Shown here: piece after piece, positions 1 through 29,912 of the stretch
Numbering within the stretch: position 1 is the stretch's first letter
How the letters are laid out: the number at the start of each line of letters is the position of its first letter
Origin: a virus
Taxonomy: Duplodnaviria > Caudoviricetes
Length of the DNA stretch: 35,721 bases
Virus record (IMG/VR): IMGVR_UViG_3300037482_000205
Coordinates: 1-35,721 of that record
Reading direction: 5' to 3' (one strand)
Notes under the pieces: model-generated
Database searches by the model: none
What the model was told of the DNA's origin: nothing
Seen by the model: the letters and a program-made list of their open reading frames with translations, nothing else
Made by a program: the position numbers and the translations under genes

Positions 1-2
1 AG

Positions 3-491
3 CGCGGAGAACAAGTCCACCACATCAATCACGATAGGGTCGACAACAGGCCGGAGAATCTTGTCGTGGTCTCGTCTGACGCCGAGCACCGCATGTTTCA
101 CCGAAAGAAAGGGTGCAGTAAGCGTAAGCCCAGCGAGCCTAACCCTATGATCGCGTGCGGCTGCGGGTGCGGCAATAGATTGTACAAATACGACAGTAGC
201 GGAAGGCCCCGACTTCACCTGTATCGGCATCATGCTGGGCGGCGGTCTCCCGAAGGAAGGGTTTTGCCGACTGGGGTTAGACGCGCCGGGTCCACCCCGC
301 CTAGGTTTTCTTCTGCCATCTGGCGGAACGGGCGCGGCTTCTTCCTCGGCACCTTTTCGACGGTGCAGCAGGCCCACTTTGTGTACATGGAAGCGGCGGT
401 CAGGATCATGGTCGAGAGGTCGACCGGCAAGCCCGCAGAGTTAGCCGACCTTAGGCAGGGACCGCGTGGCGGAAGGGGCCGCTCTTTCTGA
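3..491 (+). CDS. HNH endonuclease with CGCGCG motif and C-terminal AP2-like DNA-binding domain (5'-truncated)
   Basis: Frame is open from the window edge and reads RGEQVHHINHDRVDNRPENL (HNH_3-type motif), then IACGCGCG, then AIWRNGRGFFLGTFSTVQQAHFVY (AP2-like). Confidence 0.85.
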   Translation, partial: RGEQVHHINHDRVDNRPENLVVVSSDAEHRMFHRKKGCSKRKPSEPNPMIACGCGCGNRLYKYDSSGRPRLHLYRHHAGRRSPEGRVLPTGVRRAGSTPPRFSSAIWRNGRGFFLGTFSTVQQAHFVYMEAAVRIMVERSTGKPAELADLRQGPRGGRGRSF

Positions 492-534
492 TCCGGGCTC
501 GACTGCCGGAGTGCTACGGAGAGGAGGCGGCGGC

Positions 535-1422
535 GTGAGATTCCGCAACCCATGGGATTCGGAGGCCGAGATCGCGGACGCCACCCGTGCCGCACTGGAG
601 TCCCTCGGCTGGGAGGTCCACCCCGAGTGCGGGGGCTGGGATCTGCTGGCGGTGGCGGTGGAAGTCAAGGCGCCGTGGCACGGGGACCTCCGACGGGGCG
701 ACGTGCTGGGGGTGGAGTGCAAGCTCGACGCCGGGACGGTCGCTGGACTGGAGAGCCTGCTGCGGCAAACGCTGTGGTCGCCGGTGCGAGATCACCAGCT
801 TGAGTTCGGCTGGCGGGACCCGGCTAGCCCAATTCCCGAGCCGCCGGTCGTAGACTTCATGCGCCCTCGCAGCGGCCCGCACTTCCGGGCTGTGGTCTCG
901 GCCCGCATCGCCGCTCGCGAGACGTGGTACGGCCACGGCGTCATGACGGTCGAGGTCGCCGAGCAGACGCGGAGCGGCGACCGCTACTCAGAGCCGGACG
1001 GGTGGGGACGTCTCACCGCCGAGCAGATCGCAGCATGGTTCCGCGATGCCCGCTGGGGGGCTGGTCAATTCCCGCGCCGTCAGCCTCAGTCCCCGCCGAG
1101 GGTGCCGAAGGTCGTGGTGGACGTCCCCGCCGGCGTCCCCTCCCCGCAGACGTCCAGCCCGTGGAAGGTGGCGGCGGTGGAGGTCATGCTCAAGCTCCGC
1201 GCAGGCGAGACGATGACCTCCGCCGAGATCGGGGCCATGGGGATCAACTCCCGCCGCCTGATCGACACCGGCTGCATCGTCGACTCCGGGCAACGCCGCG
1301 GCCGCGCCTACCTGTGGACCGCCGGCGAAGGCCACGCCCGCTACGGCCGAGAGGGTCTGCCCCCGGATTTGCGGTGGCCGGAGATCGCCGAGGCCCTGCG
1401 GCGGAAAGGTGTCGCCGCATGA
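535..1422 (+). CDS. Phage protein with N-terminal PD-(D/E)xK nuclease-like motif
   Basis: GTG at 535 with GGAGG at 523-527; E..I...L...GWEVHPE..WDLLAV...VLGVECKL pattern; stop overlaps next ATG (ATGA). Confidence 0.55.
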   Translation: MRFRNPWDSEAEIADATRAALESLGWEVHPECGGWDLLAVAVEVKAPWHGDLRRGDVLGVECKLDAGTVAGLESLLRQTLWSPVRDHQLEFGWRDPASPIPEPPVVDFMRPRSGPHFRAVVSARIAARETWYGHGVMTVEVAEQTRSGDRYSEPDGWGRLTAEQIAAWFRDARWGAGQFPRRQPQSPPRVPKVVVDVPAGVPSPQTSSPWKVAAVEVMLKLRAGETMTSAEIGAMGINSRRLIDTGCIVDSGQRRGRAYLWTAGEGHARYGREGLPPDLRWPEIAEALRRKGVAA

Positions 1423-1850
1423 ACCACCCCGAGCAGTCCCTCCACCTCGCCGTAGCCGAGTTGCTGACCCTCTACCCGCCCGGCAGATCCGGAGTCGCCT
1501 GGTTTCACCCTCCCCAGGGCGGCAAACGGGGCGGGAAGCGCAACCGCCGGGGCGTCCCGATCGAGGCGGCGATTCTCAAGGGCATGGGCGCTCGGGCCGG
1601 CGTCTCCGACCTGGTTCTGCTGTGGGGCGGGGGATCAGCCGTGGTCGAGCTGAAGGTCGAGGGCGGACGGCTCTCCCCGGCGCAGCGGGATTGGATGGCG
1701 TGGTGCGAGCGGGCGGGCGTGCCCCGCTTCGTCTGCCGCTCCGTGGCCGAGGTGCGGGGCGTGGTTGCGCACCTGGTCGAGGGTGGGATGCCGGAGCCGA
1801 GAGGGTGGCGCGCCAACAAACCGCGGCCATCCCGTGTCCTCTGTGAATGA
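1419..1850 (+). CDS. VRR-NUC domain nuclease (Holliday-junction resolvase-like)
   Basis: EQSLH...WFHPPQGGKR...LKGMGARAGVSDLVLL...VELKVEGGRLSPAQRDW...VCRSV; ATGA coupling to the upstream gene. Confidence 0.88.
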   Translation: MNHPEQSLHLAVAELLTLYPPGRSGVAWFHPPQGGKRGGKRNRRGVPIEAAILKGMGARAGVSDLVLLWGGGSAVVELKVEGGRLSPAQRDWMAWCERAGVPRFVCRSVAEVRGVVAHLVEGGMPEPRGWRANKPRPSRVLCE

Positions 1851-1978
1851 GGGCGGGATGCCGCCGAAGCGCTCGCGGCGCCCGGTAGCCGACAGGGGCG
1901 GTCTCGACGCCCCCAGCAGGCGACCCCCGGAGTCCGTCCGCGATCCCGTGCGTGCGGCGCCCGCCCTCGATTTAGGAC

Positions 1979-2013
1979 TTGACAAGGCGGTCGGACTTCC
2001 GTACAGTTACGGA
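1979..2013 (+). promoter_or_regulatory. Sigma70-type leaderless promoter with an overlapping palindromic operator
   Basis: TTGACA (1979-1984), 17 nt, TACAGT (2002-2007), 7 nt, ATG 2015; inverted repeat TCCGTA-cagt-TACGGA (1998-2013) covers the -10 box. Confidence 0.8.
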
Positions 2014-2014
2014 C

Positions 2015-2221
2015 ATGAGGACCGAGCGCATAGAGATCCGGGTCACGGTGGAGCAGCGCACCGGGTACGACAAGGCGCGCGGCGACGTCCCGCTGTCGGC
2101 CTGGATCCGGAACGTGCTTGATGCGGCGGCCGGCCAACCCGGCAGCCGGAAGGGCGACCGTCGGAATTCTCCGAGGTCGCACCGGGGGTTGAGAGTCCCC
2201 CAGGGAGGCAGGAAGCCATGA
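2015..2221 (+). CDS. Ribbon-helix-helix (CopG/MobC-like) DNA-binding protein
   Basis: RTERIEIRVTVEQRTGYDKARGDVPLSAWIRNVLD: alternating beta strand followed by two helices with LSxWIR. Confidence 0.7.
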   Translation: MRTERIEIRVTVEQRTGYDKARGDVPLSAWIRNVLDAAAGQPGSRKGDRRNSPRSHRGLRVPQGGRKP

Positions 2222-3036
2222 ACGGATTCGTAGTTCTCTTCGGTAGTGCCGCGGCCGGCGCCGCGGCCCCGCGCGACCTCGACGTCGTGGTCGGCGGGCA
2301 GACCTCGGCGGCCGACGCCGTCTCAGCCGCGCAGGCGTGGTGGCTGGTTGAGCACCACGGCACCCAGGCGCGCGACGATCTCGCGCAGCAGCTCCGCGAT
2401 ACTCCGCCGCCGCCGGTGGAGGTCACTCGTCAGCGGGAAACCTACCGCGACGGGTCGGTCTACCTGCTCCGCCCGCGCGGGGCGGAGACCACCGCAATCG
2501 TGCTCCGCGGGGAGTGCGTGGTCCGGTGGTCGGACGTGGACAGCCTGCCGGCCGCGATCAGGCTCGCCACCGACGGCTATCGCGATCTCGCGTCGGACAT
2601 GATGAGTCGCCTGCTCCGCGAGGGCGGTGACCGCGTGCCGCTCAGTCTCGCCGACTACGACAAGGGATCGCCCATCGGCGCTGGCGGCTACTCCGGGGAC
2701 GGGCCGGTCGCGCTCGAGAGGGCGTTGTCCCGGATCGACCGGGAGGCCCCCCTCGGCGAGGTCATGCCGTCGCCGTTCCCGGCGGCGCTGAACTCGCTCC
2801 TGACCACGATCAGGGCCTGCCCCGGCGTGTGGTCGGGCACCTTGCCGCGGGTCAACATCGCCGACAAAGGACCCGTGTTCGAGGGCCTGCGGCACTACTG
2901 GCAGGACTGCACGCCCCTCGGTTGCCGCGGCTACGTCGGCCCGATCGACATCGTCCTGGAGTACGGCCGGAAGATCCCGATCAGTCTGGTCGAGGACATC
3001 ATCGTTGCCAGCGACCCGACGGGGACCCGGCCGTGA
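2218..3036 (+). CDS. Pol-beta superfamily nucleotidyltransferase-domain protein
   Basis: N-terminal VVLFGSAAAGAAAPRDLDVVV matches hGS-x9-DhD; candidate third acidic residue in PVEV; ATGA-coupled to the RHH gene. Confidence 0.65.
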   Translation: MNGFVVLFGSAAAGAAAPRDLDVVVGGQTSAADAVSAAQAWWLVEHHGTQARDDLAQQLRDTPPPPVEVTRQRETYRDGSVYLLRPRGAETTAIVLRGECVVRWSDVDSLPAAIRLATDGYRDLASDMMSRLLREGGDRVPLSLADYDKGSPIGAGGYSGDGPVALERALSRIDREAPLGEVMPSPFPAALNSLLTTIRACPGVWSGTLPRVNIADKGPVFEGLRHYWQDCTPLGCRGYVGPIDIVLEYGRKIPISLVEDIIVASDPTGTRP

Positions 3037-3134
3037 CCCTCTGGCAGCAGGCCGCCGCCGCCCTCTCCGACCTCTGGCCGGTGGTCGCGCTCGCCGCCTT
3101 CGTGGCGGGAGTGATCGTCGGCAGCTACCTCTGA
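3033..3134 (+). CDS. 33-aa single-TM membrane peptide
   Basis: GTGA overlap with the NTase stop; MTLWQQAAAALSDLWPVVALAAFVAGVIVGSYL. Confidence 0.55.
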   Translation: MTLWQQAAAALSDLWPVVALAAFVAGVIVGSYL

Positions 3135-3142
3135 CCACTATT

Positions 3143-3171
3143 CCGCGCCCGGTGCTCGCGACCGGGCGCGG
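3143..3171. repeat. Perfect 11-bp inverted repeat (hairpin) before the Csx16-like gene
   Basis: CCGCGCCCGGT-gctcgcg-ACCGGGCGCGG, ending 6 nt before the AGGAGA RBS. Confidence 0.75.
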
Positions 3172-3188
3172 TCTTCCAGGAGACCATC

Positions 3189-3476
3189 ATGGAAACCGTA
3201 GTCGTCACCCGTCACCACGGACTGATCGAGTACCTGCGAGCCGAGGGGCTCGCGCCCGCTGATTGCGAGGTGATCGACCACGCCACCCCGGACGCCGTGC
3301 GCGGCAAGCGCGTCATCGGCGTTCTCCCCCTGTGGCTGGCCGCCGAGGCCGCCGAGGTGGTCGAGATCCCGATGAGCATCCCGCCTGAGCTGCGCGGGGT
3401 GGAGCTGACCGCCGAGCAGACGGCGGAACACGCAGGCGAGCCGCGGACGTACCGGGTCGAAGCCGTCTCGCAGTGA
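3189..3476 (+). CDS. csx16: Csx16 (Cas_VVA1548)-family protein, putative cyclic oligoadenylate ring nuclease
   Basis: 95 aa; VTRHHGLIEYL...DH...VIGVLPLWLAA...IPPELRGVELTAEQ...YRV matches the family pattern TRHxG, VIGxLPxxLAA, PxExRGxEL; RBS AGGAGA at 3178-3183. Confidence 0.8.
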   Translation: METVVVTRHHGLIEYLRAEGLAPADCEVIDHATPDAVRGKRVIGVLPLWLAAEAAEVVEIPMSIPPELRGVELTAEQTAEHAGEPRTYRVEAVSQ

Positions 3477-3481
3477 CCCCG

Positions 3482-3512
3482 GCCCAGCCGCCTGTAGCCT
3501 CGGGCGGCGGGC
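3482..3512. terminator. GC hairpin between convergent gene blocks, probable terminator
   Basis: GCCC(A)GCCGCC...GGCGGCGGGC stem between stops at 3476 (+) and 3517 (-); no U-tract. Confidence 0.5.
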
Positions 3513-3516
3513 TCCC

Positions 3517-4698
3517 TCAGAGCTGACCGACCGCCGCCTCGACCGCCAGCAGCGTCCGCTCAGTATCCGCCGCCTTCGCCTCCCCCTTCCGCTGCCGGTC
3601 CCACGTGGCGCGCAGCTCGGCGAGGCGCTCACGCACGAGGCGCAGCGCGGGGTCTCCCGGTGGCGGAAGGGGCGGCGGCTCGACCGGTGGTGCCGGGGGC
3701 TCGGCCGTCTCGCCGACGATCCGCCCGCCGGCGATGTCGATGATGATCTCAGTCCAGTCCGCGCCCACGCCGGCGACGTTGGCCGTCCCGAGCGACTTAC
3801 CCCCGCCGCGCACGGACCAGGAGCCCGGGGCGATGCGCACGGCGGCCGCCGGGGGCTTGGTGACGATGAAGCGGTCCTCGCCGGCGATGCTCGACACCAG
3901 GGGCTGCGTCCGGTTCTTGCCGGCGCCGTAGCTGCTGATCACCGTCATCCAGGCGATGTGCCCCCGCCCGCGCAGCACGTGCAAGCCCTGGATGCACCTG
4001 ATCGGTTCGATGAGGCTCGCCAGCGCGGGCGACAGCGCCCCCTCGAGAATCCAGGCGCTGAGGGCAAGCCGCTCGGCCGAGCTGAACAGCCCCGGCACGT
4101 CGCGGTCGACCACGGCCCGGTAGGCGGCCATCGCCTCCATCCACTGGGGTCCGGTGCCCGGCTGTCGCTGCCATTCCATCCCGGCGGCCACGGCAACCGC
4201 GTAGTCGGTATCGATGTTGATCGCGCCGCCGGCGGTCCACCCGTCGGAGTCTCGCGGTAGGAGCGCCCGCCCGCACGGCATGACGCACCGGGGGCGGGAG
4301 TCCGAGCAGCAGAGGGCGGCGATGGTGAGGTCCCAGCGCAGGAACTCCCGGGCGGCGCTCCGCAAGTCCGTGTGCACCCGTTGCCACATGCGAGCCCATC
4401 CGCAGGCCGCCAGTGCCGCCACCCGCTGAAGGTGGCCGTAGCCGACCGACAGCCCCTCGAACTCGCCGCGGTGACCCTCCCGCGAGCGCGCGTAGAAGTC
4501 GACCAGGGCCTCGACGGTCGCGGTCAGCCGGTTCCCGGCCACCAGGTTGCAGGCGAGCCGGAGGTGTTGGAGGTTCGTCTCGCCCTCGCCCGTCAGCCCG
4601 CCGTCGTGCTTGGCGGCCTGAGCCATGGCGGCAGCGTCGAGCGGGGTGCCGCGGTTGAGCCAGCGGACGAGGGCGTCGTCAAGTAGGACCTTGGCCAT
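3517..4698 (-). CDS. Hypothetical protein (393 aa, Pro-rich linker, C-terminal coiled coil)
   Basis: ATG at 4698 (MAKVLLDD) overlaps the upstream TGA; long ORF in a coupled chain; no family recognised. Confidence 0.7.
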   Translation of the reverse strand: MAKVLLDDALVRWLNRGTPLDAAAMAQAAKHDGGLTGEGETNLQHLRLACNLVAGNRLTATVEALVDFYARSREGHRGEFEGLSVGYGHLQRVAALAACGWARMWQRVHTDLRSAAREFLRWDLTIAALCCSDSRPRCVMPCGRALLPRDSDGWTAGGAINIDTDYAVAVAAGMEWQRQPGTGPQWMEAMAAYRAVVDRDVPGLFSSAERLALSAWILEGALSPALASLIEPIRCIQGLHVLRGRGHIAWMTVISSYGAGKNRTQPLVSSIAGEDRFIVTKPPAAAVRIAPGSWSVRGGGKSLGTANVAGVGADWTEIIIDIAGGRIVGETAEPPAPPVEPPPLPPPGDPALRLVRERLAELRATWDRQRKGEAKAADTERTLLAVEAAVGQL

Positions 4699-5228
4699 CA
4701 GGTGGTCCCTCCGAGCTTGGCGAGGGCGGCGCGCAGCTCGCGGGCGACCCTTACCAGCTCTCGATCCCCGCCGACGGTGTTGGCGCTCTCCCACGAGAAC
4801 TCGGCCGCCCTCCGTTCCAGCCGCCCCGGCAGGGCCAGCAGCTCGGCCAGCGCCTCTGCTGCGCGGGAGGGCGGGGCGGCCAGGTCGGGGCGACGCCAAA
4901 GGCGCACGATGGCGCGCGCTGTGTCGTACATGTGCTCCCGGTCGTCACCGCGGGGCAGCGCGATGGCCGCCTCCAAATGCTTGCTGACCTCCCCCAGAGC
5001 CCCCCGCAGCCGCAGCTCGCTCGCCGCTGCGGCCAGCTCGACGCCGGCGAGGACGGCGGGCCACGCGGCCTCCATGGCGCTGAGGACGTTGCGCTTCGTT
5101 ACCTTGACCGCAGCCCGCGCTACGTCCATCGTGCTGTAGTGCCTGAAGTCCTCCGGCATGTCGCCGGGCAGCTCGGGCTCGGTCTCCACAGCCGCGACCA
5201 GCGCCGCCGGCAGGGCGGGAGCGGTCAC
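4698..5228 (-). CDS. Hypothetical phage protein
   Basis: GTGA-coupled start; EPELPGDMP motif; GGAGG upstream. Confidence 0.65.
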   Translation of the reverse strand: MTAPALPAALVAAVETEPELPGDMPEDFRHYSTMDVARAAVKVTKRNVLSAMEAAWPAVLAGVELAAAASELRLRGALGEVSKHLEAAIALPRGDDREHMYDTARAIVRLWRRPDLAAPPSRAAEALAELLALPGRLERRAAEFSWESANTVGGDRELVRVARELRAALAKLGGTT

Positions 5229-5449
5229 TCGCACACCTCCTCTCCCAATCCGTGCGCCTTGGCCGCCGCGAGCATCTGCAGGACGTCTCCGGAGGCGATG
5301 GCGTCCTCGGTCTGGCGGATCAGGGCCGAGGTGACGGCGCGGGAGATGGCGCACCCCGGACCCGGCAGGATCTTCTCGGCCTCATCCAGCTCCACCAGGA
5401 ACTGCCGGCTCTTGCGGTTCTCCTCTTGCAGGGCTTCCACGAGGTTCAT
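5225..5449 (-). CDS. Hypothetical phage protein (74 aa)
   Basis: MNLVEALQEE...AIASGDVLQMLAA; ATGA overlap with the upstream gene. Confidence 0.7.
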   Translation of the reverse strand: MNLVEALQEENRKSRQFLVELDEAEKILPGPGCAISRAVTSALIRQTEDAIASGDVLQMLAAAKAHGLGEEVCE

Positions 5450-6801
5450 GGGCACACCCCGGGCACCGCCCGCACCGCCTCGAGTAGGGCTTCTGCTACG
5501 GGATCCACCGGTGGGCAAGGGGGGCACGTCGGATCGGGAGCCGGCGTGCAGTCCGCCGGGCACACCTCGCTGGGTTCGCAGGTGCCGTCGCCGCAGAGCG
5601 GAGGCGGGGGCTCGGGTGGAGCCCAGCAGGCCAGCCGCAGATCCTCGAATCGCTGGCAGTCGGCGGGTAGGCCAGCGAAGCAGGCGGGCCGCGCGGTGTT
5701 GACGTAGAGCGCCCGCGGGGAGAACCAGTAGGAGCACACCGCTCGCGGGTCGGCGGTCGGGTAGTACTGGACGATCCCGCCGCCCGGCACATCAGCTCCC
5801 CGCCAGCGCTCGGGCGGCAGGTCGAGCAGCGGCGGACACGTCCACCCTGTCGGGCACGGCCCTGACGTCGGGCACGTCCTGACCTCGTGGGGTGGGCAAC
5901 TCGCCCACCCGCACGACAGCATGTGGCAGCCGAGGGTCGCCCCAGCCGTCACGTGGGCGTCGCAGGCGGCGCGTCCGGTAGCCCCCGGGGCCTCGCACGC
6001 CGGTACGCCAGTCCCGCCCACCAGCGCGCGCCAAGCGGCGCCCACGGCACGGCACTCGCCACCGTGTTGGCCGCACCAGTTGCCGAGCCCCCAGCCGGAG
6101 GGCTTCGGGTAGGCGTAGCGATGGCGCCAGCAGGCGAGGTCGGAGCGCACAGGTGTTCTGCCCTCGCAGTCCACGGCGCACGTCTCGGGCGTCTCGGGGA
6201 TCTCGCAGCGGCCATCGCCACAGCGCTCGGTCGCCGTGCGGAACACTCCGTCGGCCCACGGGTCGCACGGCGCTGCCGGCACGCTCCGGGTATCGCGCAC
6301 CCGCCCGGGATTGCAGCGCAAGTCGCCAGAGCAGTAGTAGACCAGGTCGCCGGGGGCGAGGGGACGGGGGAGGTCCTGCGCCGCGGCGGGGGCGGCGAGC
6401 AGCAGGACCGCCAGCACCAGCCCCGGCGTCCCGCCCGGCGGCGGCTTGGGCCACTGCCGTTTCGGGCGCCTCGTCATCCTCCGCATCTCGCTGAGGGTCT
6501 GAGCGTCGCGATCCTGCCGCTTGCCCCGGACCGCCTGCCCGGCCCGCTTGATCGCCGTGTAGCCAACTCCGCCCGCGGTAGAGCCGCCCGCCGCGACGAT
6601 CAAGAGGCTCCCCAGCATCGCCCGGTCTCCATCGCCCCACACCGCCCAGACGATCACGGCGCAGAGCTGGCCGAGCACGGCGTTGATGGCGGTCGACCAG
6701 CGATCTACCCAGCGCCACTCCTTGCCGGCCTGAGTGAGCAGCGGACCACCGACGGCGGCGAGTAGGGCGGAGAGCAGTAGGTAGGGGGTTGCGGTTTCCA
6801 T
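5446..6801 (-). CDS. Holin-like multi-TM N-terminus fused to an internal signal peptide and a Cys-rich exported domain
   Basis: ATG 6801 with GGAG RBS; three hydrophobic segments in the first ~85 aa; basic stretch then GLVLAVLLLAAPAAA-Q; C-terminal part very Cys-rich with CGDGRCEIPETPETCAVDC and CGDGTCEPSEVCPADC. Confidence 0.7.
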   Translation of the reverse strand: METATPYLLLSALLAAVGGPLLTQAGKEWRWVDRWSTAINAVLGQLCAVIVWAVWGDGDRAMLGSLLIVAAGGSTAGGVGYTAIKRAGQAVRGKRQDRDAQTLSEMRRMTRRPKRQWPKPPPGGTPGLVLAVLLLAAPAAAQDLPRPLAPGDLVYYCSGDLRCNPGRVRDTRSVPAAPCDPWADGVFRTATERCGDGRCEIPETPETCAVDCEGRTPVRSDLACWRHRYAYPKPSGWGLGNWCGQHGGECRAVGAAWRALVGGTGVPACEAPGATGRAACDAHVTAGATLGCHMLSCGWASCPPHEVRTCPTSGPCPTGWTCPPLLDLPPERWRGADVPGGGIVQYYPTADPRAVCSYWFSPRALYVNTARPACFAGLPADCQRFEDLRLACWAPPEPPPPLCGDGTCEPSEVCPADCTPAPDPTCPPCPPVDPVAEALLEAVRAVPGVCP

Positions 6802-11915: not shown

Positions 11916-12098
11916 TCACGGCAGCTCCCTGATCTCGACCTTGACGGCCCGGTCGCCCGCACGCCGACACTCGTCCCACGTCTGACCGAGCGCCTTGCAG
12001 TGCGCTCTGACAACCTCCCTGCGAGTACGCCCGGGATCCCGCAAGTATCCGTTTCGGTCCTTGATCGCCCACCAACGCTCGGCCACCGGTTCGCTCAC
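11916..12098 (-). CDS. Small hypothetical protein (paralogue of 9820-9993)
   Basis: WAIKDRNG...C..LG..W......GDRAVKVE; GTGA-coupled to the RHH gene. Confidence 0.6.
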   Translation of the reverse strand: MSEPVAERWWAIKDRNGYLRDPGRTRREVVRAHCKALGQTWDECRRAGDRAVKVEIRELP

Positions 12099-12292
12099 CG
12101 CTTCACCCTCCCCGCAGCGGCCCGGCAGTGCCGTCCGCCGGGCTCGCTGCGCTCGACTGCACCACGGAGGATCCAGCGCACCTGATCGCTCAGGCGCCGC
12201 CCGTCCTTGGCCGCGAGCTGCTTGAGCGAGTCGGCCAGATCCTCGTGGATGCGAATGTTGATGCGGGCGGTCAGATCGCGGCGTCGCGGCAT
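12095..12292 (-). CDS. Arc/ribbon-helix-helix DNA-binding protein
   Basis: TARINIRIHEDLADSLKQLAAKDGRRLSDQVRWILRGAV; leaderless ATG 7 nt after CACAGT. Confidence 0.85.
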   Translation of the reverse strand: MPRRRDLTARINIRIHEDLADSLKQLAAKDGRRLSDQVRWILRGAVERSEPGGRHCRAAAGRVKR

Positions 12293-12345
12293 GTACCCCA
12301 CTGTGGCACGTGGGAGAGGCCGCGCGGGGGCTTACGAGATTTCAG
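12293..12345 (-). promoter_or_regulatory. Conserved box plus extended -10 promoter, copy 1
   Basis: Minus strand: CTGAAATCTCGTAA, 23 nt, TGC-CACAGT, 7 nt, ATG (12292). Confidence 0.6.
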
Positions 12346-12640: not shown

Positions 12641-13309
12641 TCAGTCCGGAGCCGCCCCGTCGTCGCGCACCCAGGCGAGTGAAGTACCGGCATCGTAGGC
12701 AATCGCATACCACCGCAGACGCCGGTAGCCGCCATCCTTGCAGCGGAAGCGATTCGGGAAGCTGTCCACCGGCGAGGACCACGTCCCACCCTCGGCCGCC
12801 TGGGTCCGCTGGAAGTCCTCGGGGTGGCAGAGTCTGCGCCAGCCCATGCTGACGATCTCCTCCCGCGTCCAGCCGAGGACGTCGCAGAAAGACTGGTTCA
12901 CCCACAGTAACGAGCCGTTCCCCGAGGATCCGGTGATCGCCCACGGTACGGGCAGCCCGTCCAAGAGCGCGGCCACGGGCGCGGCGTTGCGCGCCAGCAG
13001 CTCCGCCGCCTTGAGCAGGGGGTACTCGCTGGCGTACCAGCCGAGGTCACGCTGAAGCCCATGGATCGTTTCGAGCGCGGCTTCCAACTCCATCGACTTC
13101 ACCTCCAGCGCGGAGATAGCGGTATCCTCAGCCACGTGCGCATCCCGGCGGCGCTGACGCTCGCGGTCGATCTCGACGGCGGAGTCAGCACCGGCATCGC
13201 GACGCAGCTTCGCCAGATCGGCGCGGGCACGCCATACGGCAATTGCTGCCCCGGAGAGGGTCGCCAGCACGCCAGCCACCGCCACCGCCTGCGCTAGAGT
13301 GATTTCCAT
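12641..13309 (-). CDS. Membrane-anchored PAS-domain protein (TM, coiled coil, PAS)
   Basis: N-terminal TM AVAVAGVLATLSGAAIAVW; coiled coil; PAS signature LLDGLP...G.LLWVNQSFCDVLGWTREEI...W..LCHPED...NRFRCKDGGYRRLRW. Confidence 0.88.
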   Translation of the reverse strand: MEITLAQAVAVAGVLATLSGAAIAVWRARADLAKLRRDAGADSAVEIDRERQRRRDAHVAEDTAISALEVKSMELEAALETIHGLQRDLGWYASEYPLLKAAELLARNAAPVAALLDGLPVPWAITGSSGNGSLLWVNQSFCDVLGWTREEIVSMGWRRLCHPEDFQRTQAAEGGTWSSPVDSFPNRFRCKDGGYRRLRWYAIAYDAGTSLAWVRDDGAAPD

Positions 13310-13661
13310 GGCGACGATCCTGATGATCGATGATCACCCGCACATGCGGGAGCTATCCCGATACCTGCTCGCGCGAGCGGGACACCGAGTACTCCTCTGC
13401 GCGCGAGGAGAGGATGGCCTCGCCATCGCTGCCAGGGAAAAGCCCGATCTCGTATTGATCGATCTCAACCTGCCTGGCGGGATCGACGGGTACGAGACGA
13501 TGCGCCGCATGCCGGCGGGAACACGAGCGGTTGCCTTCACCGCCTACCCCGGGGAGATCCTGGCCGCCGGCTTCGCCGGCCGGATCGACAAGGCGGTGCG
13601 ATCGGAAACCTTTGTCGATCAGGTCGAGGCGTTCCTGCCTACGGGGGCGGCCGCAAGATGA
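13308..13661 (+). CDS. Single-domain response regulator (CheY/DivK-like receiver)
   Basis: ILMIDD...GEDGL...EKPDLVLIDLNLPG.IDGYE...AFTAY...AGF...IDK; phospho-acceptor Asp, Thr and Lys present; TAGAGT 7 nt before the ATG. Confidence 0.9.
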   Translation: MATILMIDDHPHMRELSRYLLARAGHRVLLCARGEDGLAIAAREKPDLVLIDLNLPGGIDGYETMRRMPAGTRAVAFTAYPGEILAAGFAGRIDKAVRSETFVDQVEAFLPTGAAAR

Positions 13662-16671: not shown

Positions 16672-16700
16672 TTGACTCGCGGATGCGCATGGTCTACACT
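16672..16700 (+). promoter_or_regulatory. Sigma70-type promoter for the antisense gene at 16824
   Basis: TTGACT (16672-16677), 17 nt, TACACT (16695-16700). Confidence 0.7.
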
Positions 16701-16742
16701 CGGGCTGTCGAGGCCGCTGCGATGCTCAACCCAACAACCTCT

Positions 16743-16800
16743 CCCGCCCGGCCGCTCGCGCGCAGCGGCCTCGACAACCGCTTGCGGGCGGCCGGGCGGG
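16743..16800. repeat. Long GC-rich hairpin in the 5' leader of the antisense gene
   Basis: CCCGCCCGGCCGCTCGCG pairs with TGCGGGCGGCCGGGCGGG (18 bp with two G-U pairs), plus inner AGCGG/CCGCT. Confidence 0.7.
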
Positions 16801-16823
16801 GGTTCTGACTGAGGGAGATCGTC

Positions 16824-17177
16824 ATGCGTACTGCCATGGTTGCTCTGCTACTCGCCATCTCGGCGGGCTTCTTCGCCCCCATCGGATCGCTCAGCGCGGA
16901 CGGGTCGATCGACGTCGCCAAGGCGCCGCCGCCCACCCCGGCCGGTATAACCTTCGGGGAGTTCTACCTGGAAGGCCGGGTCAACGGGTTCGCCATCGAA
17001 GATGGCGGCGCCGCCGGGTCGGTCACGGTGGCAGGAGTCGAGGTCACGGTTGACGGATTCCCCACGGTGGAGGCCGGGGGGTGCGTCGAGGTTACGGGCG
17101 TGGCCGTGTTCGACGGCGGCCACCTGATCAACCGGGTCACCTCCCCCGGGCACTTCGTCAGCGTCGCCTGCGAGTAG
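16824..17177 (+). CDS. Exported small beta protein, DUF5666/OB-fold-like (moron)
   Basis: GAGGGAG RBS; signal peptide MRTAMVALLLAISAGFF...; LEGRV...SVTVAGVEVTV...GGCVEVTG; two Cys. Confidence 0.65.
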   Translation: MRTAMVALLLAISAGFFAPIGSLSADGSIDVAKAPPPTPAGITFGEFYLEGRVNGFAIEDGGAAGSVTVAGVEVTVDGFPTVEAGGCVEVTGVAVFDGGHLINRVTSPGHFVSVACE

Positions 17178-29682: not shown

Positions 29683-29717
29683 TTGCCGAGTGGTCCGAAC
29701 GCGTCTAGAATCACGCC
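29683..29717 (+). promoter_or_regulatory. Sigma70-type leaderless promoter
   Basis: TTGCCG (29683-29688), 17 nt, TAGAAT (29706-29711), 6 nt, ATG 29718. Confidence 0.75.
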
Positions 29718-29912
29718 ATGCCCACGTTGCCCGAAGGCGTAGAGTTCGTGACCGCCGGCCAGCTCGCCCGCACGCTCGGCGTCGGCAAGCGGACCGTCTA
29801 CGCGCTGATCGAGGTCGGCGAAGTGCCGGCCACCAGGCCGCTGCGGGAGTACCGGATCAGGCGGGAGGATGCTGTGGCGGCGATCGAGCGGGCGAAGCAG
29901 AGGGCGCGATGA
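29718..29912 (+). CDS. HTH_17 excisionase/MerR-like DNA-binding protein
   Basis: FVTAGQLARTLGVGKRTVYALIEVGEVPATR..REYRIRRED. Confidence 0.85.
   Translation: MPTLPEGVEFVTAGQLARTLGVGKRTVYALIEVGEVPATRPLREYRIRREDAVAAIERAKQRAR

Follow-up and report, generated by a model that had tools for sequence, protein, structure and literature searches.

The virus record IMGVR_UViG_3300037482_000205 (IMG/VR; Caudoviricetes) carries a four-gene accessory cassette encoding, in order, a predicted ribbon-helix-helix (RHH) protein, a predicted nucleotidyltransferase (NTase), a predicted membrane peptide of 33 residues and a Csx16-family protein, and the question is what this combination does for a phage. The window analysed is the whole record, 35,721 bp, linear, with a completeness estimate of 45%; its major head and endolysin genes are on the minus strand, and the two sequencing runs that cover most of it, either of which may be its origin, are labelled sediment metagenome. 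The plus-strand cassette (1969–3494) has a VRR-NUC gene (1419–1850) on one side and, on the other, a convergent gene for a 394-residue orphan protein (3517–4701). An initial annotation had seen here either an anti-defence cassette under an anti-CRISPR-associated (Aca)-like regulator, directed against type III CRISPR or cyclic-oligonucleotide-based anti-phage signalling (CBASS), or a minimal signalling unit of synthase, membrane effector and eraser. We favour, at a probability of about 0.6, a self-repressing counter-defence cassette whose Csx16 would clear cyclic tetra-adenylate (cA4), the NTase being a likely second cargo.

The cassette behaves as a unit. Contigs from three sequencing runs were aligned onto the cassette region, with runs X2 and X3 coming from different studies. 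In X2, a joint from 1968 to 3495 skips the cassette at a depth of 15.8; its shorter side is 29 nt, which is below the tool's threshold, and its other side matches the window over 120 nt with a single gap only. In X3, a joint from 1965 to 3497 does the same at a depth of 5.2, with a shorter side of 37 nt. Since contigs of two other studies skip 1969–3494, the 1.5-kb unit is a genuine presence/absence cassette, absent from some close relatives, and both joints place the promoter and all four genes within one indel block. X2 also contains a cassette-bearing piece (2393–3523, 1131 nt) with zero differences from the window, and the cassette-bearing and cassette-free pieces both stop at base 3523, as two alleles would. 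Given this shared end and the 120-nt match beside the joint, X2 appears to contain both alleles, and a sample in which cassette-bearing and cassette-free forms occur naturally is suited to studying selection by host defences. The GC content of the cassette (70.6%) is in line with that of its flanks (69.4% and 71.3%).

The gene that most directly suggests a function is the fourth (3189–3476, plus strand), whose 95-residue product is, by sequence, a member of the Csx16 family, as the initial annotation had proposed. It matched PF09652 at 70.9 bits against a cut-off of 25 (E = 1e-19), with residues 5–90 on profile positions 2–90 of 91, and the PADLOC Csx16 profile at 2e-18; the match to TIGR02620 (26.1 bits, E = 7.7e-6) was below the cut-off of 46.35. 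Strongly conserved columns were defined as those with at least 80% conservation among 76 viral Csx16 sequences, and the protein is identical at 23 of 25 such columns, with conservative changes (I for V, M for L) at the other two. In published work, Csx16 fully degrades cA4, leaves the tri- and hexa-adenylates cA3 and cA6, and is present in 2 of 28,114 phage genomes (PMC12409355). The product of gene 4, a predicted cA4 ring nuclease, is very probably active on cA4, and that it acts as an anti-CRISPR is probable; no demonstration of a phage Csx16 as an anti-CRISPR was found in the literature consulted on Csx16. In IMG/VR, 75 of 106 pattern matches proved to be Csx16 relatives, so viral Csx16 is common. 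Two close relatives, P0007 and P0008, have a C-terminal tail of about 40 residues (CxxC, H, C) that is possibly zinc-binding.

How the operon would be controlled is suggested by its upstream end. The TTGACA-N17-TACAGT promoter and the palindrome over its -10 box, both described in the initial annotation, were confirmed. The predicted sigma-70-type promoter (1979–2007, plus strand; -35 TTGACA, 17-nt spacer, -10 TACAGT) scores 10/12, the top of five matches across 35.7 kb, and is the sole match in positions 1–6000, for which shuffles average 0.2. The inverted repeat across the -10 box (1998–2013) is perfect, with 6-bp arms and a 4-nt centre, and is the predicted operator of gene 1; as background, such repeats cover 2.5% of contig hexamers. 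Gene 1 (2015–2221, plus strand) begins with an ATG at 2015, just 8 nt past the -10 box, so its mRNA is probably leaderless. The 68-residue product has a domain at about residues 1–45 with, by inspection, a strand-helix-helix pattern, and no significant match in Pfam, PHROG, NCBIfam or PADLOC. Aligned by hhalign with 11 hand-chosen RHH-like sequences, some but not all of which are above the Pfam cut-off, it gave a probability of 69% (P = 4.5e-5), a score reached by none of 2000 shuffles, and of the Atlas clusters that have a family, those nearest to it are of RHH type (0.89–0.90). Gene 1 is thus likely, but not certain, to encode an RHH protein. Both an inverted repeat overlapping the -10 box and a co-encoded ring-nuclease gene (Csx16, not a validated anti-CRISPR), two marks of an Aca14-type operon, are present, and we find it fairly probable that gene 1 autorepresses its operon.

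Similar arrangements were sought around other viral Csx16 genes. Among the 64 of the 75 loci with enough upstream DNA, a promoter scoring at least 10/12 lay within 1.5 kb upstream in 34 in the sense and in 16 in the antisense orientation. Two of eight hand-picked small open reading frames near viral Csx16 genes passed the RHH Pfam cut-off; these RHH genes (L027:5699-5884 and L029:5737-6048), about 0.7 kb downstream of a viral Csx16, are candidate Aca-like regulators. In the window itself, a further RHH/Arc-like repressor gene is found at 12098–12301 (minus strand), and at 29683–29912 (plus strand) an HTH_17 gene, probably also transcribed without a leader, has its ATG 7 nt past the end of a promoter's -10 box.

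Three translationally coupled genes had also been noted, and the overlaps are indeed there: ATGA at 2218–2221 joins genes 1 and 2, and GTGA at 3033–3036 joins genes 2 and 3. In a codon model built from the phage's genes, each of the four genes scores highest in its own frame, with GC content at third codon positions (GC3) of 0.85–0.97; the final 23 codons of gene 1 do not resemble coding sequence. The two hairpins of the initial annotation were upheld as structures: neither the internal hairpin, an 11-bp perfect stem ahead of the Csx16 ribosome-binding site (3143–3171, plus strand; z = -4.1), nor the closing hairpin between the convergent genes (3481–3513; z = -3.0) was equalled by any of 200 plus-strand shuffles. 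Neither, however, has a U-tract, and a terminator scan called neither. The internal hairpin, for which there was no Rfam match close to the gathering score, is likely a processing, stability or partial-termination element. At 3170–3185 a small alternative stem that competes with the base of this hairpin may mask the Csx16 ribosome-binding site; the two predicted folds differ. The closing hairpin has the right-hand indel joint in its loop region. Where the cassette is absent, the left flank is able to pair with the right arm of this hairpin (-22.8 vs -26.1 kcal/mol), and both alleles would therefore have a hairpin separating the convergent genes.

Gene 2 (2218–3036, plus strand) encodes 272 residues, which we divide into an MNT-like core (residues 1–108) and an orphan C-terminal domain. 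There was no significant match in Pfam, PHROG, NCBIfam or PADLOC, and the NTase label comes from profile-profile tests: the N-terminal half aligned with 23 MNT sequences (PF18765) at a probability of 94% (P = 1.4e-7), with all three acids aligned. NTases of the DNA polymerase beta (Pol-beta) type have the motif hG[GS]x9-13DhD and a third acidic residue on the next strand. This pattern is present in the family of gene 2, which consists of 24 unannotated sequences; the core residues of the window protein are G9, S10, D20, D22 and E68, of which the first four are invariant, with D or E at position 68 in 24/24 rows, and the C-terminal domain has invariant R115 and Y158. An AlphaFold2 model had a predicted local distance difference test (pLDDT) score of 81, and its top Foldseek matches, which were weak, were to MNT antitoxins; one CdnG chain was among the matches (E = 2.8), and neither Pfam nor PADLOC listed a CD-NTase (SMODS) match with an E of 1 or less. 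The C-terminal domain (pLDDT 74) had no fold match in the structure search. For both the RHH and the NTase labels, then, profile-profile support is moderate, but significant family-library matches are lacking. Gene 2 quite probably encodes an active NTase. As MNT antitoxins are its nearest matches by both profile and structure, the activity we favour, tentatively, is MNT-like AMPylation of protein, which might silence a defence nuclease of the host; a HEPN effector such as Csx1/Csm6 or HepT would be a plausible target. Alternatives are RNA-end modification and tyrosine-primed oligonucleotide synthesis. The predicted enzyme is likely a separate second counter-defence cargo.

The third gene (3033–3134, plus strand) encodes the 33-residue peptide, for which a single transmembrane helix is predicted (Kyte-Doolittle mean of the best 19 residues, 2.09). 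It has a GC3 of 0.97 and GGGGA upstream, and no meaningful family match in Pfam, PHROG, NCBIfam or PADLOC. The peptide is likely an independent small cargo.

Whether NTase and Csx16 belong together was approached through their relatives. The two genes were directly observed side by side in this cassette only. Going by matching contig metadata, which is indirect evidence, two further genomes combine the NTase with a close Csx16 relative on shared contigs: the NTase P0002 (58% identical) and the Csx16 P0007 (76%) are each on three contigs, the longest 5239 bp, and the NTase P0022 (52%) and the Csx16 P0006 (77%) are each on three contigs, the longest 27438 bp. Exact metadata matches occurred in 2 of 405 NTase/Csx16 pairs, against a crude expectation of 0.04 (P about 8e-4). 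P0002 and P0022 fall in the five-row clade of the window NTase (support 100/100); for the remaining two close NTases, whose contigs measure 1855 and 1281 bp, no Csx16 row matched. The Csx16s of the window, P0006, P0007 and P0008 form a four-row group, weakly supported (Shimodaira-Hasegawa-like approximate likelihood ratio test, 88; 94 columns). Two results weigh against a general link. A profile search found the NTase family or an MNT at none of the 75 other viral Csx16 loci, 49 of which have at least 1.5 kb on either side, and no neighbour recurred at these loci beyond near-identical genomes. Further, a 2065-bp contig, L083, has a distant NTase member, no Csx16, and then another gene. This gene (L083:1344-2063, plus strand; at least 240 residues) had no Pfam, NCBIfam or PADLOC match, and we take its motifs to be reminiscent of DHH-type phosphoesterases; if that is true, L083 would be a second pairing of an NTase with a phosphoesterase. 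The co-occurrence anticipated in the initial annotation was therefore found as two indirect pairs in one lineage. The pairing looks lineage-specific, and as such shows co-inheritance rather than functional coupling. Of the features whose absence would have pointed to a chance assembly, the PF09652 match was found, the NTase fold has moderate support and some co-occurrence was seen indirectly.

In the mechanism that we favour, the near-consensus promoter would fire at phage DNA entry, and cA4, the alarm molecule of the host type III CRISPR system, would be cleaved by the Csx16-family protein. Binding of the predicted RHH protein to the palindrome at the -10 box would then switch the operon off, with the predicted NTase likely working as a separate second cargo. 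The initial proposal of an Aca-like anti-defence cassette stands on the Csx16 match, the moderately supported RHH and NTase folds, the bounded indel and a published RHH and ring-nuclease design; the part of it that names CBASS does not, since in published assays Csx16 cleaved cA4 and left cA3 and cA6 uncut (PMC12409355), which makes CBASS an unlikely target. That same specificity tells against the alternative of a signalling unit, with the NTase as synthase of a cyclic or linear oligoadenylate, the peptide as effector and Csx16 as eraser, which we consider very improbable. The NTase core aligns with MNT/Pol-beta enzymes more than with any known cyclic-nucleotide synthase, the 33-residue single helix has no ligand-binding domain and no room for a sensor domain, and NTase and Csx16 are each found without the other. 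A looser view takes Csx16 for an ordinary stand-alone viral ring nuclease, and the NTase and peptide for unrelated passengers that share its promoter and have no counter-defence role. The NTase-free viral Csx16 loci without a recurrent neighbour, the distant NTase without Csx16 on L083 and the internal hairpin that parts Csx16 from the three coupled genes all speak for this view; the gain or loss of the four genes as a single block, and the apparent retention of the pair across NTases just 52–58% identical, speak against it, and we hold it to be unlikely.

The cassette could also be a moron, expressed in the lysogen, in which the NTase and peptide guard the lysogen from other phages while Csx16 damps type III autoimmunity to prophage transcripts. 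Its own promoter and closing hairpin, its insertion between convergent genes, and the fused MNT-HEPN genes of similar size (276 residues) that prophages carry (PMC13000451) fit such a role, as does the Rx4H motif in 10 of the 24 NTase family rows. However, the motif is in none of the window's five-row clade, which has E167 and R or K172 at this position (E167 and R172 in the window NTase). Moreover, the C-terminal domain failed to match 16 HEPN sequences by hhalign (P = 0.21), and the contig, itself 45% complete, has no tyrosine integrase. We consider a moron role rather improbable. Within the favoured counter-defence reading, a bolder version may be imagined, which we put forward as speculation and think unlikely in full: the NTase, a detoxified relative of MNT-HEPN-like fusions, would be a new enzymatic anti-defence class forming with Csx16 a two-pronged block of nucleotide-signalling immunity, in which Csx16 removes cA4 and the NTase either AMPylates and thereby silences the HEPN effector of the host or produces a tyrosine-primed oligonucleotide as a decoy. 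If the NTase does neutralise a defence effector by nucleotide transfer, its anti-CRISPR chemistry would be new and it might serve to switch off type III tools. The cassette places an unannotated family of 24 NTase sequences inside a bounded, probably anti-type III operon, and it makes a simple case in which to test whether Csx16 from phages truly works as an anti-CRISPR.

Other genes were noted in passing. In the window, another near-consensus promoter precedes a gene for 117 residues with a signal-peptide-like start (16672–17177, plus strand); this gene opposes the surrounding late genes and is possibly a further accessory gene. A stand-alone gene at 13299–13661 (plus strand), response-regulator receiver-like by inspection and with PHROG matches of unknown function, is counter-oriented beside lysis-region genes. 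Outside viruses, Csx16 genes on Deinococcota plasmids (L200:5001-5285 and L201:4998-7013, the latter coding for a protein of about 670 residues; two Csx16 matches on the L201 record) lie among small hypothetical genes, and a Deinococcus plasmid Csx16 lies amid small genes and genes for single-stranded DNA-binding proteins; no cas gene is annotated in the L200 and L201 stretches, or closer than 5 kb to the Deinococcus gene.

Compared with known systems as the cited papers describe them, the cassette combines familiar and unfamiliar parts. Like described Csx16 (PF09652, TIGR02620; PMC12409355), gene 4 has a full-length Pfam match and keeps the VTRH, HA, GVLP and RG.EL positions; unlike it, gene 4 is phage-borne, flanked by non-cas genes and below the TIGR02620 cut-off. 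The proposed viral destruction of cA4 is shared with the AcrIII-1/Crn2 ring nuclease (PMC12409355, PMC12830947). The N-terminal GS..DxD..D/E Pol-beta core of gene 2 is that of MntA of type VII HepT/MntA and of FhepTA (PMC13000451), and FhepTA (276 residues) is also similar in size and two-domain order. In contrast to MntA and FhepTA, the C-terminal domain of gene 2 shows no HEPN fold or profile match (no HEPN chain is listed for its model, pLDDT 74) and its clade lacks Rx4H; the invariant Tyr precedes the motif position rather than following it as in FhepTA, and, unlike for MntA, there is no HEPN toxin gene in the cassette, whose other three genes are RHH-like, the peptide and Csx16. A HEPN profile search of L076 gave no match. 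As in Hailong HalA/HalB, an NTase adjoins a membrane-protein gene and has a candidate priming tyrosine, but in place of the tetrameric HalA channel and its cytoplasmic crown there is a 33-residue helix, the structural score of the NTase to HalB is weak, and Hailong, as described, includes no ring nuclease (PMC13434031). CBASS differs in having an adjacent effector with a nucleotide-sensing domain, where the sole membrane gene here encodes a single helix. The closest parallel is csx20-aca14 of Pasteurella multocida, in which Aca14, an RHH protein, binds an inverted repeat at the -10 box and represses the csx20 operon (PMC13551039). The cassette has the same design, with a likely RHH regulator, a predicted cA4 ring-nuclease gene, an inverted repeat over the -10 box and a mobile-element counter-defence setting, so the regulatory part is not new and the initial view that the combination was undescribed holds only for NTase with Csx16: a literature search lacking most subscription papers turned up neither the NTase family nor a pairing of it with Csx16. 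With the regulator and ring-nuclease design known, the cassette is chiefly useful as guilt by association. It differs from csx20-aca14 in having Csx16 in place of Csx20, a GC-rich operator and the RHH gene first and probably leaderless, and in adding the membrane peptide and the NTase; since RHH-controlled phage ring-nuclease operons have already been published, the new element is the NTase partner.
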